A stretch of DNA of 64,000 nucleotides from Candidatus Poribacteria bacterium (GTDB taxonomy: Bacteria > Poribacteria > WGA-4E > PCPOR2b): the NCBI GenBank assembly GCA_965208325.1, contig OZ242326.1:3232001-3296000 (forward strand). The letters are read 5' to 3'. The position numbers are program-made. Shown here piece by piece: positions 37,001-43,000 of the stretch (positions within the stretch are counted from its first letter, which is position 1; every line of letters begins with the position of its first letter).

Positions 37001-40000
37001 CTACTCGTTCGATGAGAAGTTTGAAACGCCCGCGAACATTCAGAACACGTTTGGAGCGGAAGGACATGCCGGCTTGCGAATCCGTCTAATCGAGAAGATT
37101 TTTGACGCGGCGCAACTCCACGGTGTGATTGGCTATCAATTTAGCCGATTGAAGCCAAGCATTAGTATACCGGATAAACCGGAGGTTGATGCTCTGTCGC
37201 TGAATCGCCATCATGTGGTATTTCGGTTGGAACTGACCGGTTTGTAGCTCACCGACGCAGACCGCGCCGTTTAAAATCGTCATTTGAATTTATTTTACCT
37301 CCTCAAACTTTTCCTTGACTCAACTGTGTGAAATGCCTAATATAGGACTGGTGTTTATTCACACGCTGTACGATTGAATTTTCAAAGATTAGACAGATTT
37401 AAGTCAAGCGAGATTGAGGGGGTTTTTTTTATGCCTCATTTTTGGATATTAATTCGCGTCCCACATGTTTTGCCTCAACAAGGCGCAATTCGATGTCTGC
37501 TGTTGTGGCTGCTGTTATGTCCGTTCATTGCGAGCGCACAACCGGACACGATGCAACCTCATACTTCAGCCTACCGAATATCCCAAGACATCAAGATTGA
37601 CGGGAATCTTGATGAGCCAGAATGGCAAAAAGCCCAGCCGATCAAGCGGTTCCTCCAAATACAACCGAACCAAGGGGAACCGATGACGCAGCCTTCGGAA
37701 GTGCGCATACTTTATGATGAGAAAAACCTCTACTTTGGTTTTACCTTTTACGACTCTGAGATTGAAAAACTGGTTGCCAATGAGATGCGCCGGGATTCTG
37801 ACGGTTTGCGATCCAACGACTACGGTTATCTGCTCTTGGACACATACAATGATCGGCGAAACGCCGTTTTCTTCCGTTTCAATCCGTTGGGCGGGATGGA
37901 AGATACGGCGGTGTCAAACAGCGGCGATAGTCTAAATGGGAGCTGGGATATGGTTTGGGAGTGCCGCAGCAAAATCAGTGCGGACCGGTGGGCATCGGAG
38001 ATTGCTATTCCGTTCAGCCAGCTTCGCTTTAAACGAAGCGACGTGATGACATGGGGAATGAACTTCGGGCGGGAAATTGCGCGGAACCAAGAGATTGGGG
38101 GGTGGAATCCTGCACCGAAGACGTATGGCCCGCTAGGTAAATACCGCACCGCCTACTTCGGCAGTCTCGTTGGTTTGGAGGGTATTTCCCCGTCGCGGCA
38201 TCTGGAAGTGCTGCCTTATGTGCTGTCGGGTGCAAGCCGCATCGCCGCTGAAGGTGAAACCGATGAGGTGTTTGAAGGCGGTTTGGACCTGAAGTATGGA
38301 ATAACACCAAATTTAACTGCCGATTTAACCTTTAACACTGATTTCGCCCAAGTCGAAGCTGACCAAGAACAGGTAAACCTTACCCGTTTCGACCTCTTTT
38401 TCCCTGAGCAGCGACCGTTTTTCTTGGAAGGTGCAAGCATCTTCGATGTGGGCGTTCCACGTACCGGTTTTCACCGCCCGCCGCCCTTACTGCTGTTTTA
38501 CAGCCGCCGCATCGGCCTTGCTGAAGAACGCGCCATCCCGATACTCACCGGGGGAAAAATGACCGGGAAAGTCGGCGCTTACAATATCGGGTTTTTGAAT
38601 GTGTTGACGGACAGGTTTACGGATGATGATTCTCGGGCGGATGTGGACCGCGTCGATGAACCGCGCACAAACTATTCGGTAATGCGCGTAACGCGGGACA
38701 TCTTCAGCGGTTCCTCCATCGGTGCGATCGCCGTCAATAAGCAGGATGCCGACGTGTACAACCGCACGGCGGGGCTTGACTTTTCGTATCGCCCGAAGCG
38801 GGATATGGATTTCCGCGGGCTATTGGCGCGCACATTTGAAGAAGGTGTCTCCGAGCAAGACAGTGCCGTCTACTTTGGCGGCGATTGGCGAACGAACCGG
38901 TTTAAACTCGACGGTTCGTATATCGACATCGGCGAGGATTTTAATCCGGGAGTTGGATTTGTTCATCGCAGCGGCATCCGCGGCTTTCGCGGCAACGCCC
39001 GCTATACGCCGTGGCCGCGGGCATACGGCATTCGACGCATTGAGATTGGACCGCAGTTTGACTTGGTTCTCAATCGAGAGAACACGTTGGAGACACGTGA
39101 GACAAAGTTCGACACTGAATTGCAGTTTGAATCGGGCGATTGGGCCGGTTTCCAAGTCCAGAACACGACAGAACATCTGCGTGAAGAATTCTCGATCCAG
39201 GAGGCAATCATCGCAGTTGGCGATTACGATTTTACGTCGTTTTTTGCATGGGTCGAGACCAGCAACAGCCGGAATATCTTCGGGACGTTCATCGTTCAAC
39301 TAGGTGAATACTATAGCGGCGACATACGCGGTGTTCGAATTGACGGGGCAATCAAGCCCAATGCCCGCCTGAGTATGGAGTCGCTGGTCGAGTTCAACCG
39401 CATCACGTTCCCTGATAAGGCGTTCAATGCCAACGTTTTCGGGGGGCGCGTGAGCTATTCCTTTTCGACGACGCTCTTTACGAAGTTGTTTGCCCAATGG
39501 AGCAGCGAAAAGGACGCAATCTCCACGAATTTTCTAGTAAACTTCATCTACCGCCCCGGCAGCGATTTCTACCTGGTTTTCAACCAGAATTACGATACGG
39601 GCGGCGGCGGGGCAAATCTCCTAGACTGGACACTCGTAGGGAAGATGACGTATTGGTGGAATCCGTAAACATGCGTTTCGGCGCGGCAAATTTCCTTCGT
39701 AGAACCGCTTCGAGTCGTCCGACACCCCATACAACTCTCGTCCGATTTGATAAGGTTTAGGCATTTTATACAATCCACAACGTTATGTTGCTGTGAACCG
39801 CTCCCAGATACGCCGTCCTCGATTCAATATACATGGTTGGGCTTTCCGCGTCTGCATTTTCCAGACCAATCTCTCACTCTACACGTTCACACACGCAATC
39901 GGAATATTTCTGGCTGAATAGTCAAATCAGATTTTGAGGCGTTTGGCTTTTTCCTTACAAAGCCCAAAACATTGATGAAAACTTCCAACAACAGGATCGC

Positions 40001-43000
40001 CCTTAATTTTGACGACACCGCAGAAGTGTCAGTCAAAGGCTTTATTGCCCCGATTGAATATACCCAATACAACTTCCATGAAAGGTGGGACGCATTGGCG
40101 AATCTACGGGTTGCTGAGCCAGAAAAGCGATACTCTGCGTCAGATTTTCGTGCGTTTCTTCCTGACGAAGCGGTATCGGTTGGTGAGGTCTGGCAAATTG
40201 AAGAGGAGGGTGTGCTGACGTTGTTGCGGCAACTTCACCCCAATCCACATCTGGATATGCACATTGATGTGGGGGATTCCCGTGGGTTGTGGGCGTGTCT
40301 ACGCGCTTATAACCATCAACTTGCCCATGTTGTGTTCCGCATTCATGCAGAATTTGCGTTGACGGACGGTTGGTTCACACCCTCCCAATTCGCCGGACAT
40401 TTAGTTATCGATCGAATTGAAGACAAGATTGTATTTTTCCAGATGCGCTTACCTGATGGTGTAATGAACTTCGATGTTAACTGGCGAACGACAGAAGAAG
40501 GGTGGGAGCGGTCTATAGTAATTACCGATATCGGCTTCTGTCCACAAATGGAATTACGTGCCGGAATGGAAGCCGGCGTGCAAGACTTTAAATTCATTGA
40601 AGCCATTACGCAAGAAGAAGCCGCGCGCAATTTGATACTGTGTTTTTACAAATCCCAGCAAATTCATTGGGTATCGCTGGAAGAAGCGTTGAAAATCGCA
40701 CCGGTGCAACAGAAGCCGATTCATGCCATATCAATTGATGGGCCGCTGGCTGACGAGGCGTGTTGAGGGAGCGGTAAAGCCTTGAGGGCAGTTGCCCTCT
40801 CACATGACCGGGTCATCAAGTTTTTGAACGAAAATTTCATCAACACTTGGGCAACCAATGCCGAATTAGGGCGTACTTCTAGCCTGCGAGACCCTATTGC
40901 GAAGAGACGCAGGCGCGAATCCAACAGCTTTGACACAACGTCCCCTTTGGTGCAAGCAATCAATAGGGGATGGCAAGAAGGTTCGCCGGTGGATTGCTTG
41001 GTTATATCGCCCGACTTTGAACTGAAAGGGCAACTTCCGCTCAATGAATTCCTTCAGAACGCCCGGAGTAAGGGCATCCGGCAAGAGGAGAGTTACCTAA
41101 CGTTTCTCGTGCAATCGTTAGAAGGGAAACAGCCTGGATTGGAGTAGTCGCCAATCCTATCAACGAGCGAACCGCGTAACCGAAATCACCGCAATCGACA
41201 GAAAACAAGCATCGGCTGGTTTTGCTACTTCGTGTTACTAGCGCGCAGCAGGTGGATTCCCATTGCACCGTTCAACACCGGTAGCAGCGCATCGAAGAAG
41301 GTCCACACCAGCGAACGGACATCTGCGCTGACCGCGGTAAAATCTTTTGCAGCCTTGCTGATGCCGAACCAGTTCCAGAAAAAGAGTATGGCAGCGAACA
41401 CGAACCCGTAGAAAAGCGCGTTGGCTGTGATGAACTCTTTAACCTTCGGATTCTCGCGGGTGCGGCGTATGCGTAGGTATCCGAATTCCAAGCCTACAAT
41501 AATAGAGATTGCGGAGAGCGGGTCAATTATTTTCCAGATGCGGCTGTACGGATGATCGCTTGAGGACGTGTGGTAGATTGGCTCAATAATAGTGTGGATG
41601 GCGACGATGGCTCCAATTAGAATTAGAACTACGCCAAAGAACCGTTTGAGTCCTTCCATGTAGAATGTCTCCCTGTTAACGGTCGCTTCAGCGATCGTGG
41701 CTGAAGTTGGTGGGTAAGTTTTTTAGACTCAATCCTGAGGTTTACCCCGATTTTCGGCTTGCACGCTTCAATCCGTGGAGAGGCGGAGGGCACAGAGACA
41801 ATCTTCTCTGTGCCCTCACGTATTTGCGTCTTGGTTGGGAACGGGGATTCACATTCCCGACACGCGCTACCTTTTCTGACGCACAACTAATCAAGGCGGC
41901 GGTTCAGGTTAGGAAGTAGTGTGGATTATTGAAAGACTGTGCTGGTTTAGTTGTGCCATCCCAATACATACGGATTTTGCGTTCTGCAGCACAAACTCAT
42001 GGCAAGCACCGATTCTGATGACGAATCACATACAGTGTTGGCTATTCGCTGGCACTGGAGCGCAACAGATGGACGCCTATTGCACCACTCAACAGCGGGA
42101 ATAGGGCATCAAAGAAAATCCATACGATCGACCGGACATCGGCGCTGACCGCAGTGAATTCCTTCCCGACATCGCTGATGCCGAACCAGTTCCAGAAAAA
42201 GAGTATGGCTGCGAACACAAATCCGTAGAATAGCGTGTTCGCCGCGATGAACTCTGGACCGCTCGCATTTTCGCCGGCACGTCTCATCCGGCAACAGCCG
42301 AATATCAACCCCAGGATAATGGCAATCGCAGTGAGCGGGTTGATTATGCCCCAAGTTGAACTGTACGGGTTCGCTTCGGTGGATGTGTGGTAAAGCGGTT
42401 CGATAACCGTGTGGATGGCAACGATTGCCGCAATTAGGATGTGAACGACACCTACAATTTGCTTGAAGACCTTCATGACAATGTCCTCCAATTTGTTTGT
42501 CGGTTACAGTTAAATCCTGTCCCAAGAAACGAAACAAAGTATATCGTATCATACACCCGCAAAAAATCAACGAAAATGTTACGGAACAATTTGCTCGACT
42601 GTCATGGGAGTAATGGGTAGTGAGTAATGAGTAATGCGTAATGCGTAATGAGTAAAGAAAAATGCGAAATGCGAAATGAGAAAAAGTGGTAAATCAGATT
42701 TTGACCGTCAAGGTTGGCTTTGAAGTCACATGGACAGAGAACGAATGCTAATAGCTTAAATCCGCTGCCTGCGCCGGAGATGGTGAGAAGGGGGATTCAA
42801 ACCGATAGGACAAAAATTTTAACATACAATAAGTGCATTTGTTGTCTTAGGATGATTCGCGGGAATCGTCCGGGTTAGCAGTATGCGTTAGGAAGGAAGG
42901 CGTTACTATACTGCAAATCTTTTTGGAAAACGACGCCCGTCAGAATTTATTGCTTCATCAAAGCGTGCCTACGAGGAGCGTTTATGGAGTGCTAATTGGG

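Follow-up and report, generated by a model that had tools for sequence, protein, structure and literature searches.

A probable selenocysteine-encoding relative of animal selenoprotein N, split into two gene calls in a Poribacteria genome

Does an in-frame TGA between two adjacent gene calls in a genome of the sponge-associated Candidatus Poribacteria terminate a gene, or does it encode selenocysteine (Sec) in a bacterial relative of animal selenoprotein N (SELENON)? The calls, g02643 and g02644, lie in the stretch of 64,000 nucleotides analysed here (the window), and a survey of the genome had read them as one protein. Loss of SELENON leads to human myopathies, and its chemistry, substrates and structure are still unclear; passages of the literature describe it as being without a solved 3D structure (PMC7474598) and call the role of its Sec enigmatic (PMC12936836). 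We consider it highly probable that the two calls form one Sec gene of the SELENON family, that its UGA is decoded via a hairpin, and that the product is a probable thiol/selenol oxidoreductase.

The reading frame and its relation to animal SELENON

If the TGA is read through, 39975-41147 on the plus strand is a single frame of 390 amino acids with one TGA, which places U264 in DEACUGSGK. Thus, the survey was right to join the calls and to place the TGA within E-A-C-U-G-S-G. Translation under table 11 yields instead 39972/39975-40766 (263-264 aa) and, as a separate frame, 40782-41147 (121 aa). The features, all on the plus strand, are as follows.

39915-39917, +: upstream in-frame TGA, which shuts the frame 19 codons 5' of the start
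39972, +: alternative TTG start, one codon 5' of 39975
39975-41147, +: whole gene, 390 codons followed by a TAG stop (41145-41147), read directly from the sequence
40017-40568, +: barrel-like, beta-rich domain (residues 15-198), with homology to the middle of animal SELENON
40635-41132, +: thioredoxin-fold domain (residues 221-386), from the AlphaFold model and structural matches
40764-40766, +: in-frame TGA, codon 264, predicted Sec in D-E-A-C-U-G-S-G-K
40784-40799, +: hairpin GAGGGC-AGTT-GCCCTC, 6 bp, candidate bacterial SECIS

No terminator-like site was found at the locus, and the frequency of promoter-like sites did not exceed that in shuffled sequences. The read-through protein matched no Pfam family at E-values up to 1, thioredoxin families included, and no NCBIfam family; a sequence search of the PDB was also empty. 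The similarity to animal SELENON that the survey had proposed was confirmed. BLASTP against P0264, a wombat SELENON gene model, gave 28% identity (E 3e-27) in an alignment that crosses the Sec site, and phmmer reached the same protein at E 7.5e-20 in a search of 1.84 billion proteins. The UniRef name of P0264 is 'EF-hand domain-containing protein'. In hhalign, a profile of 57 bacterial relatives aligned with the profile of 17 animal SELENON proteins with a probability of 100% and E 4.9e-67 over 346 columns, covering window residues 15-387 and residues 116-552 of 556 in Latimeria SELENON. Because this match extends through residue 387, the part after the Sec, which the survey had left uncompared, is homologous as well. 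For P0128, a relative with Cys in place of Sec, the top ESM Atlas cluster was 'Selenoprotein N' (Eukaryota) at 0.93, followed by clusters in which Planctomycetota is the commonest phylum, which we treat as a lead only.

The likeness extends over the whole luminal core, with the common blocks FRIHAEF, P-x-QF-G, N-x-D, PQMEL, LDD[EQ]SCUGSG[KR]xLR, LN-x-x-FI-x-x-W and Y-x-x-FL. The Sec occupies the identical column beside a Cys: the window protein has A-C-U-G and its relatives S-C-U-G or A-C-U-G in the column of the animal SC(U)GSGR block. Disease-associated residues of human SELENON include G463, R466 and R469 according to a passage of PMC3541580, and Sec is residue 462 according to one of PMC12839072. 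The corresponding window residues G265, K268 and R271 are nearly invariant or invariant across 57 sequences. In both groups a hairpin directly follows the UGA; the animal one (the SRE) is taken from the literature, the bacterial one was computed here.

The bacterial protein differs from animal SELENON in several respects. It has no cytosolic N-terminal tail, transmembrane helix or EF-hand: it begins at about SELENON residue 116 and the frame is shut upstream, in agreement with the survey, which had seen no EF-hand. The closed frame also leaves no room for a signal peptide, and the N-terminus of the protein is not hydrophobic. While animal SELENON has a SECIS in the 3'UTR, a hairpin within the ORF presumably decodes Sec in the bacterium. 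Identity is only about 28%, and additional C-terminal domains are present in many of the bacterial paralogs. Animal SELENON is further characterised by an ER location, glycosylation and reductase activity towards SERCA2; a bacterium has neither an ER nor SERCA2. Comparison of the sequences confirms 39975-41147 as a full-length relative of the animal SELENON core, minus the transmembrane/EF-hand head. A thesis or a book chapter by SELENON researchers may already refer to a homolog in Poribacteria. The literature searched yielded no paper that describes SELENON from bacteria, and the searched passages of the GOS selenoproteome paper (PMC2398784) and of reviews from 2022 and 2026 (PMC9312934, PMC13188914) contain none.

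Predicted fold and proposed chemistry

The AlphaFold model (pLDDT 93.3, pTM 0.89) shows a beta-barrel joined by a helical linker to a thioredoxin fold. Strand 249-254 precedes the pair Cys263-Sec264 and helix 265-272 comes after it, which puts the two residues where the first helix of the thioredoxin fold begins. A thioredoxin domain is also stated for SEPN1 in a passage of PMC7474598. In structural comparisons of the model, residues 221-386 matched thioredoxin folds at Z 9-13, with DsbH 2ju5 in front (Z 13.1, rmsd 3.4 over 125 residues), followed by 3f9u (Z 12.7), AGR3 3ph9 (Z 11.5), 2kuc (Z 11.0) and the UAS domain of UBXD7, 2dlx (Z 10.4). Foldseek returned 7tkv at E 2e-4. A profile search against the PDB produced a single weak row (E 1.9), in which the Sec column is aligned with the leading Cys of the CGPC site of 2kuc. 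The barrel domain alone reached at best Z 5.9 in VIA-align (Cap15 barrel), then 5.3 (Rv2717c, nitrobindin-like) and de novo barrels, values too low to assign the domain to a fold family.

The domain resembles DsbH, AGR/ERp18, DsbD-gamma and UAS proteins in its fold and in having its redox residues where the first helix begins, a likeness of fold only, as there is no Pfam match at the sequence level. DsbH-type proteins have a CxxC motif and no barrel domain, whereas here a vicinal Cys-Sec pair is found in a protein joined to a barrel; the second CxxC position is Gly267 in the weak alignment. Mammalian thioredoxin reductase, too, has a dyad of neighbouring Cys and Sec before a Gly in its GCUG end, a comparison likewise drawn for SELENON in a passage of PMC12839072. 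However, in thioredoxin reductase the dyad is located on the flexible C-terminal tail of a flavoenzyme, while here it lies inside a thioredoxin fold without an FAD/NADPH domain.

We propose that the gene product is soluble, without a signal peptide, and equivalent to the luminal core of animal SELENON, lacking the head with its transmembrane segment and calcium-sensing EF-hand. Sec264 would stand where a thioredoxin CxxC site has its attacking cysteine, and Cys263 would be available for a vicinal selenenylsulfide with it, of the kind known from the GCUG end in thioredoxin reductase. The protein could act as a thiol/selenol-disulfide oxidoreductase, a reductase whose protein or small-molecule substrate may be held by the barrel domain. 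Judged from fold, motif and fusions only, oxidoreductase activity is the most likely function. The neighbourhood, with an RND metal-efflux cluster and a DUF5916 protein upstream and convergent small membrane proteins downstream, contains no redox partner and no pointer to function.

Alternatively, the protein may be a genuine SELENON-family selenoprotein that serves as a redox sensor or signalling module instead of a catalytic reductase. Passages of PMC12839072 and PMC10298544 describe animal SELENON as a calcium and redox sensor. Among the bacterial relatives, P0233 (adjoined in the tree by L047) and P0126 have ECF sigma-70 regions 2 and 4 and a membrane span as fusion partners, P0222 has leucine-rich repeats, and one paralog group tolerates Gly for Sec. 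The window protein itself, however, has neither such a fusion nor a signal peptide, and Redoxin/AhpC-TSA domains fused to deep paralogs (E 1e-20) point to electron transfer. Moreover, Sec is usually retained for catalysis. We therefore regard a purely sensory role as unlikely and favour the reductase. A soluble homolog of 390 residues with the identical Cys-Sec site and with the conserved residues mutated in patients offers a simple model for SELENON, for which natural Cys and Gly variants are ready-made controls; structure determination, redox measurements and substrate trapping thus become feasible.

Decoding of the UGA

By a hand count from the table of matches in 31 related genomes, 15 of these genomes carry the family and 55 of the 56 matches covering the Sec column have an in-frame TGA, the exception being in G026. 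The DNA pattern D-E-[SA]-C-TGA-G-x-G-K gave at least 179 matches in at least 178 loci of species-representative genomes. BLAST of the flanks on either side of the TGA sorts the 179 matches listed into 175 family members, one short remnant and three chance hits, so that the TGA stands at the identical column in at least 175 loci, from more than 70 assemblies among the matches listed. Two protein searches yielded 270 relatives, of which 207 end precisely at the Sec column, which indicates that gene callers stopped at the TGA; 15 others are C-terminal pieces that begin just after it. Cys replaces Sec in six of the 270 (ESCCGSGK and EACCATGK). At the DNA level the Cys-form pattern occurred in 35 loci, 34 of them by chance, with L212 from Poribacteria as the one real case. 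A conserved in-frame UGA with Cys homologs is thus found, as expected for a bacterial selenoprotein. In one paralog group of one genus, nine of 21 close orthologs have Gly instead, and Sec is dispensable there. The survey's statement that the family is kept as a selenoprotein in many Poribacteria therefore holds for nearly all site-spanning matches, but Sec is not universal. In database translations, some relatives have W or G at the Sec column; the W in P0123 is known from the protein record alone. The family is a large uncurated addition to the bacterial selenoproteome, without a Pfam or NCBIfam model and cut in two by gene callers.

The host genome encodes the Sec machinery with all scores above cut-off: selA (588.7 bits), selB (373.5 bits), selD (376.8 bits) and tRNA-Sec (77.5 bits). 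Its selD itself carries one TGA and is Sec-containing. Bacterial SECIS elements typically have a small apical loop with a G, some 16-37 nt after the UGA. The 6-bp hairpin that the survey had placed about 20 nt after the UGA is located at 40784-40799; it begins 17 nt after the UGA (+20 to +35 counted from the U of UGA), and its 5' arm contains the AGG codon of the invariant Arg271. Across the relatives 91.7% of 900 cells were paired compared with 44-83% in slid controls, and three pairs showed double changes. The folding energy was -9.33 kcal/mol, against -4.42 kcal/mol in synonymous resamples (mean z -2.18; control region z +0.16). The hairpin uses AGG or AGA for its Arg in 148 of 150 sequences compared with 26% gene-wide, and CTC for its Leu in 144 of 150 compared with 21% gene-wide. 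A loop G followed by U occurs in 144 of 150 sequences (AGGT 75, AGTT 44, GGGT 25). These data support that the hairpin is under selection at synonymous sites and is kept across 150 relatives by biased codons.

Deep paralogs have a shifted 7-bp version of the hairpin, and because the two registers coexist, the RNAalifold consensus retained only three hairpin pairs. The 60 nt after the UGA in the window itself folded no better than shuffled sequences (z -0.92), and no SECIS family of Rfam matched the hairpin. It was retained in the seven Gly forms and one Cys form examined; its conservation may hence partly reflect the conserved peptide LRAxxL or recent conversion. Like the fdhF-type bacterial SECIS, it is a stem-loop inside the coding sequence soon after the UGA, but its stem is short (6-7 bp) and without an Rfam match. 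Position, pairing and codon bias agree with a SECIS hairpin, and a role as SelB site is predicted. We propose from the comparative evidence that SelB and Sec-tRNA would read the UGA at codon 264, guided by this hairpin.

Could the UGA be read through as another amino acid, by a near-cognate tRNA (Trp, Cys) or with TGA as a sense codon of the organism? A hairpin could stimulate plain read-through, and the W and G entries in database translations would fit such decoding. The Gly forms, however, use genuine GGA or GGC codons, and Cys at the Sec column of non-Sec relatives is the usual Sec/Cys pairing. Long Pfam-matching proteins are coded under table 11 in this genome, which is 95.6% complete by marker genes, and selA, selB, selD and tRNA-Sec are present. 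Non-Sec read-through is thus very unlikely. The opposite view, that the TGA is a true stop between two separate genes or in a nonsense-broken pseudogene, with the 121-codon ORF translated alone or never, would agree with the split by gene callers, with a TTG at 40782 as a possible start of the second ORF, and with the nine Gly orthologs of another paralog group, which manage without Sec. It is highly improbable given the TGA column kept in related genomes, the in-frame SELENON homology across it, the Cys forms and the Sec machinery; furthermore, the predicted thioredoxin fold is complete only with both halves. Decoding as Sec remains the preferred reading. An independent contig from a sponge metagenome with 32 differences retains the TGA. 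Small shares of three RNA-library runs contained two matching contigs, one of 194 nt with two differences and one of 226 nt with 14 differences, both from the N-terminal part, and no contig bridging the UGA.

Distribution and origin of the family

The family comprises 411 clusters at 50% identity. Its multiplication in Poribacteria, as reported by the survey, is evident from tandem arrays on bacterial contigs of 5-6 Mb; the family is not limited to this phylum, since it also occurs in Planctomycetota. Although the stretch was detected in sponge metagenomes and SELENON is otherwise known from animals, mis-assembled or mis-binned sponge-host DNA is a negligible explanation, as the gene lies within a single 4.71-Mb contig with bacterial genes on both sides, including the RND efflux system, has no introns and no transmembrane/EF-hand head, carries its hairpin in the ORF in the bacterial manner, shares only 27-29% identity with animal proteins and has relatives in the tandem arrays mentioned above.

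In two unrooted trees, FastTree with 121 rows and a quick IQ-TREE tree with 57 rows, the animal sequences form one clade with support of 100 on a long branch, while its neighbours receive support of 0-85. P0222, which is placed near the animals, was traced to a Planctomycetota MAG. Constraining animals and the main Poribacteria clade to group together cost 19.9 log-likelihood units and was not rejected (p-AU 0.122). The survey had raised the question of gene exchange between sponge hosts and symbionts; a tree joining animals and Poribacteria is compatible with the data, but exchange is not supported, because the trees neither show nor exclude such a link. We speculate, as a tentative and rather doubtful scenario, that animal SELENON descends from the Planctomycetota/Poribacteria family through uptake near the base of animals, that the anchor and EF-hand were added later, and that the SRE is a leftover bacterial SECIS. 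The family lets one ask, in a concrete case, how an animal-specific ER protein and the unusual hairpin beside its UGA arose. Both hairpins, the animal SRE and the bacterial one, overlap the codon of one invariant arginine, R469 in the human protein and R271 in the window.

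Reading frame and kinship with selenoprotein N

The gene is read on the forward strand of the window, where the following elements define it:
39975 to 41147, forward strand: SELENON-family gene, a single frame of 390 codons if the TGA is read through
40764 to 40766, forward strand: in-frame TGA at codon 264, the only TGA within the frame
41145 to 41147, forward strand: TAG stop codon at the end of the 390-codon frame

With the standard bacterial code the gene breaks into an ORF of 263/264 codons and one of 121 codons, while read-through gives the residues D-E-A-C-U-G-S-G-K around codon 264. 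Direct reading of the frame confirmed the survey's finding that gene calls g02643 and g02644 form one protein of 390 residues with a single TGA in the motif, and this observation is real. Since a TGA located 19 codons before the ATG closes the frame upstream, the protein cannot possess an N-terminal signal peptide. The genome holds one copy of the gene.

No model in Pfam or NCBIfam matches the read-through protein. Pfam is equally blind to P0264, a mammalian SELENON gene model, and its missing match is therefore uninformative on the relationship. When 1.84 billion cluster representatives were searched exhaustively with phmmer, 411 relatives emerged at E ≤ 0.001, among them P0264 (wombat, 588 residues, UniRef name 'EF-hand domain-containing protein'). 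Pairwise BLASTP against P0264 gave 28% identity (E 3e-27) in an alignment that crosses the Sec site and extends 29 residues past it (LNENFINTW versus LNEKFISTW). A mollusc relative used as query retrieved many proteins named selenoprotein N by their source, from Latimeria, Oreochromis, Petromyzon, Branchiostoma, Patiria and Mizuhopecten. Compared as profiles, 57 bacterial and related sequences (A4) and 17 full-length animal SELENON proteins (A5) matched with a probability of 100% and E 4.9e-67 over 346 aligned columns, extending the SELENON likeness to the full length. The match spans window residues 15-387 and Latimeria residues 116-552 of 556; the part behind the Sec, whose comparison the survey had left undone, is thus homologous as far as the last helix. 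The first ~115 residues of animal SELENON, with membrane anchor and EF-hand, are absent from the bacterial protein; the survey likewise saw no EF-hand. Judged by sequence comparison, the window protein is a relative of SELENON over its whole length and clearly belongs to that family, with a probable bacterial style of decoding and without the calcium-sensing head. Its interpretation as a bacterial selenoprotein N has good support.

Full-text searches of a literature library turned up no publication on bacterial selenoprotein N, and the searched passages of bacterial selenoproteome papers contain no mention of one. A Poribacteria homolog may reportedly have been mentioned in the SELENON field. 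Setting the bacterial family apart are the absence of the calcium-sensing head, the probable bacterial-style decoding, the new domain fusions and the large tandem expansions, the last bearing out the multiplication in Poribacteria that had been claimed.

Decoding of the TGA and the hairpin behind it

Four comparative lines, namely conservation, Cys counterparts, the Sec machinery and the hairpin, support the TGA as a selenocysteine codon. Among 270 collected relatives, 207 terminate exactly at the Sec column, the alignment position of U264, and 15 are pieces starting just past it, the pattern that gene callers leave at a Sec codon. The family was found in 15 of 31 related genomes, where by our own count an in-frame TGA is present in 55 of the 56 matches covering the Sec column. 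Scanning DNA for the TGA-containing motif gave at least 179 matches in at least 178 loci; the 179 matches listed comprise 175 family members that are homologous on either side of the TGA, one remnant and three chance matches, and 171 of the loci listed fall in 70 assemblies labelled Poribacteria. Cys-for-Sec counterparts (ESCCGSGK or EACCATGK) occur in six proteins and additionally in one Poribacteria locus. The window's own genome (G000, contig C1) encodes selA, selB and tRNA-Sec together (G000:C1:2041509-2044983, reverse strand; selB at G000:C1:2041677-2043569), and its selD (G000:C1:4481278-4482201, reverse strand) has one in-frame TGA itself, bringing the selenoprotein genes of this genome to at least two. 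In the database translation of one relative, P0123 (526 aa, JGI/ENA), a W stands at the Sec column (ESCWGT), which may reflect a TGA that the gene caller of the source translated as Trp.

One correction to the survey's reading is that the family does not keep Sec everywhere. Gly occupies the Sec column in 12 full-length database proteins, and the substitution holds in the DNA, where P0020 has a 100% identity match with no stop. In one Poribacteria genus, a Gly/TGA ortholog group is present in 21 of 65 genomes, with the TGA in 12 and without it in nine. These orthologs (L238-L258, in genomes G122-G172; 68-100% identity to the relative P0018) are a natural series of Sec loss. Where readable, the Gly codons are GGA or GGC (the codon pattern missed 11 of 23 loci), and the hairpin described below is retained, with the loop AGTT changed to AACT in the GGC forms.

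The survey had reported a 6-bp hairpin about 20 nt past the UGA, and we located it as follows:
40784 to 40799, forward strand: hairpin GAGGGC-AGTT-GCCCTC, starting 17 nt past the UGA, in codons U+6 to U+11, with arms at 40784-40789 and 40794-40799

It is borne out by a gap-free alignment of 150 distinct sequences (the window and 149 of 168 distinct 87-nt segments), in which 91.7% of 900 cells are paired, compared with 44-83% for slid partners, and three of the six pairs show changes on both sides. Deep paralogs have a 7-bp variant with the register shifted by one position (GAGAGCG-GGTC-CGCTCTC). Because the hairpin lies within the codons of a conserved peptide, L-R-A-x-x-L, we examined synonymous sites. 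Of 150 sequences, 148 encode the hairpin Arg by AGG or AGA, a pair of codons used for 26% of Arg in the rest of 78 family genes, and 144 encode the 3' Leu by CTC, versus 21% elsewhere. The observed folding energy is -9.33 kcal/mol, synonymous resamples give -4.42 kcal/mol (mean z -2.18), and in a control region 27 nt farther downstream z is +0.16. This codon bias and lower folding energy support selection on the RNA, which is not in itself proof of binding by SelB; the hairpin is a candidate SECIS. It is kept in seven Gly forms and one Cys form, which were all that could be read. The window's own 60 nt, taken alone, fold no better than shuffles (z -0.92), and no Rfam family matches the hairpin region.

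In the human SEPN1 mRNA the hairpin directly past the UGA is the selenocysteine redefinition element, within which passages of PMC3541580 list the SEPN1 mutations G463V, R466Q and R469W/Q. An excerpt of PMC12839072 describes p.Sec462Arg and p.Arg466Gln as affecting the SCUG motif, and a passage in PMC12936836 likens the animal element to a bacterial SECIS. Counted from the Sec, human G463, R466 and R469 lie at U+1, U+4 and U+7; their counterparts in the window protein, G265, K268 and R271, are invariant or nearly so in A4. The bacterial hairpin contains the AGG codon of R271 (40785-40787) in its 5' arm.

Modelled structure, proposed activity and domain fusions

AlphaFold2 with A4 gave a confident model (pLDDT 93.3, pTM 0.89) with the following parts:
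residues 17-197: run of antiparallel strands
residues 213-245: helices
residues 249-382: strand-helix order of a thioredoxin fold

Cys263-Sec264 is placed between strand 249-254 and helix 265-272. In a structure search with the model, residues 221-386 matched solved thioredoxin-fold structures, among them DsbH 2ju5 (Z 13.1, rmsd 3.4 over 125 residues), 3f9u (Z 12.7), AGR3 of the ER (Z 11.5), DsbD-gamma, and UAS domains (Z 10.4 and 9.1). No solved structure in the PDB was matched by sequence search; the profile search gave one weak match (E 1.9), to 2kuc, also a structural match, in which the Sec column aligns with the first Cys of CGPC and Gly267 with the second. The barrel domain modelled alone (pLDDT 92.3) had only weak structural matches, the Cap15 barrel (Z 5.9) and a nitrobindin-like protein (Z 5.3).

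From the modelled thioredoxin fold and the Cys-Sec site we infer that the protein would act as a thiol/selenol oxidoreductase. We propose that Sec264 would attack a disulfide or oxidised thiol, that Cys263 would resolve the intermediate as a vicinal selenenylsulfide, the same arrangement as in the GCUG end of thioredoxin reductase, and that the barrel domain might hold the substrate. On a crude measure of hydrophobicity, the N-terminus resembles a signal peptide or membrane segment in about 23 of 60 bacterial rows, and not in the window protein and its nearest relatives; the window copy is therefore probably cytoplasmic and many paralogs are probably exported.

A redox role fits the domain fusions of relatives. 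In deep Poribacteria paralogs a Redoxin/AhpC-TSA domain is attached at the C-terminus (E 1e-20 and 3e-17), with S/N-x-F-C (WSGFC, WNSFC) in place of its usual CxxC:
L030:428-2167, L056:500-2503 and L094:473-2137: Redoxin/AhpC-TSA fusions, ~34% identity to the window protein

In ECF sigma fusions (P0233, P0126, L047) the SELENON-like domain stands behind sigma-70 regions 2 and 4 and a membrane span, and in a Planctomycetota MAG (P0222 / L269:2001-3941) behind leucine-rich repeats (LRR). The ECF sigma and LRR fusions would also fit a sensor role and suggest extracytoplasmic sensor use in some lineages. In many paralogs (L023, L025, L040, L074, L078 and others) a C-terminal domain of ~130 residues (blocks QDYTVV-IDxTAF-GG-L-ID-VG ... 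FKLGATG ... INAF-AKISVE) without a match in Pfam is present once or twice, and some have a further tail of ~110 residues (SAEDVMNTFVEAFKNLD...). The ~130-residue domain also forms separate ORFs adjoining family genes and recurs in the window's own genome:
G000:C1:3989847-3990653 and 851131-851769: ~130-residue domain

Distribution, origin and surroundings

The family is not restricted to Poribacteria. Assemblies labelled Planctomycetota or Pirellulaceae account for at least three of the pattern loci, each of these genomes having a single copy with a single TGA, and in P0222, from the Planctomycetota MAG, the frame runs on past the TGA in the motif N-Q-S-C-U-P-S-G. As a lead only, a Cys form retrieved ESM Atlas clusters in which Planctomycetota is the commonest phylum.

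Exchange between sponge hosts and symbionts, raised by the survey, found no support in two unrooted trees (FastTree, 121 rows; IQ-TREE quick tree, 57 rows) in which many rows cover the pre-Sec part only. In both trees the 13 animal proteins form a single clade with a long stem (support 100), Poribacteria split into two separate groups, and the neighbours of the animal clade are unresolved. Forcing animals together with the main Poribacteria clade lowered the log-likelihood by 19.9 units, and the constrained tree was not rejected (p-AU 0.122). At 27-29% identity to animal proteins, nothing points to a recent transfer.

RNA-library contigs cover short parts of the gene only, none bridging the TGA. 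The gene stretch is present in 20 sponge-metagenome runs across 14 studies, and one sponge-metagenome DNA contig spans it with 32 differences and the TGA intact.

The gene stands alone among its neighbours. Upstream are a DUF5916 protein and a CusCBA-like metal efflux cluster, whose genes code for two outer-membrane factors, for a membrane-fusion protein containing five heavy-metal-binding domains (PF19335) and for a 1266-residue pump of the AcrB family:
27722 to 36572, forward strand: CusCBA-like RND efflux cluster
41225 to 41659 and 42042 to 42491, reverse strand: two neighbouring small membrane proteins that are paralogs (144 and 149 aa), converging on the gene from downstream
46918 to 47364, forward strand: IS3-type transposase fragment with HTH_21 and the first part of the integrase core domain

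The small membrane proteins share blocks such as FYGFVFAAILFFWNWFGIS, and one has a weak DUF6814 match (E 8e-5).
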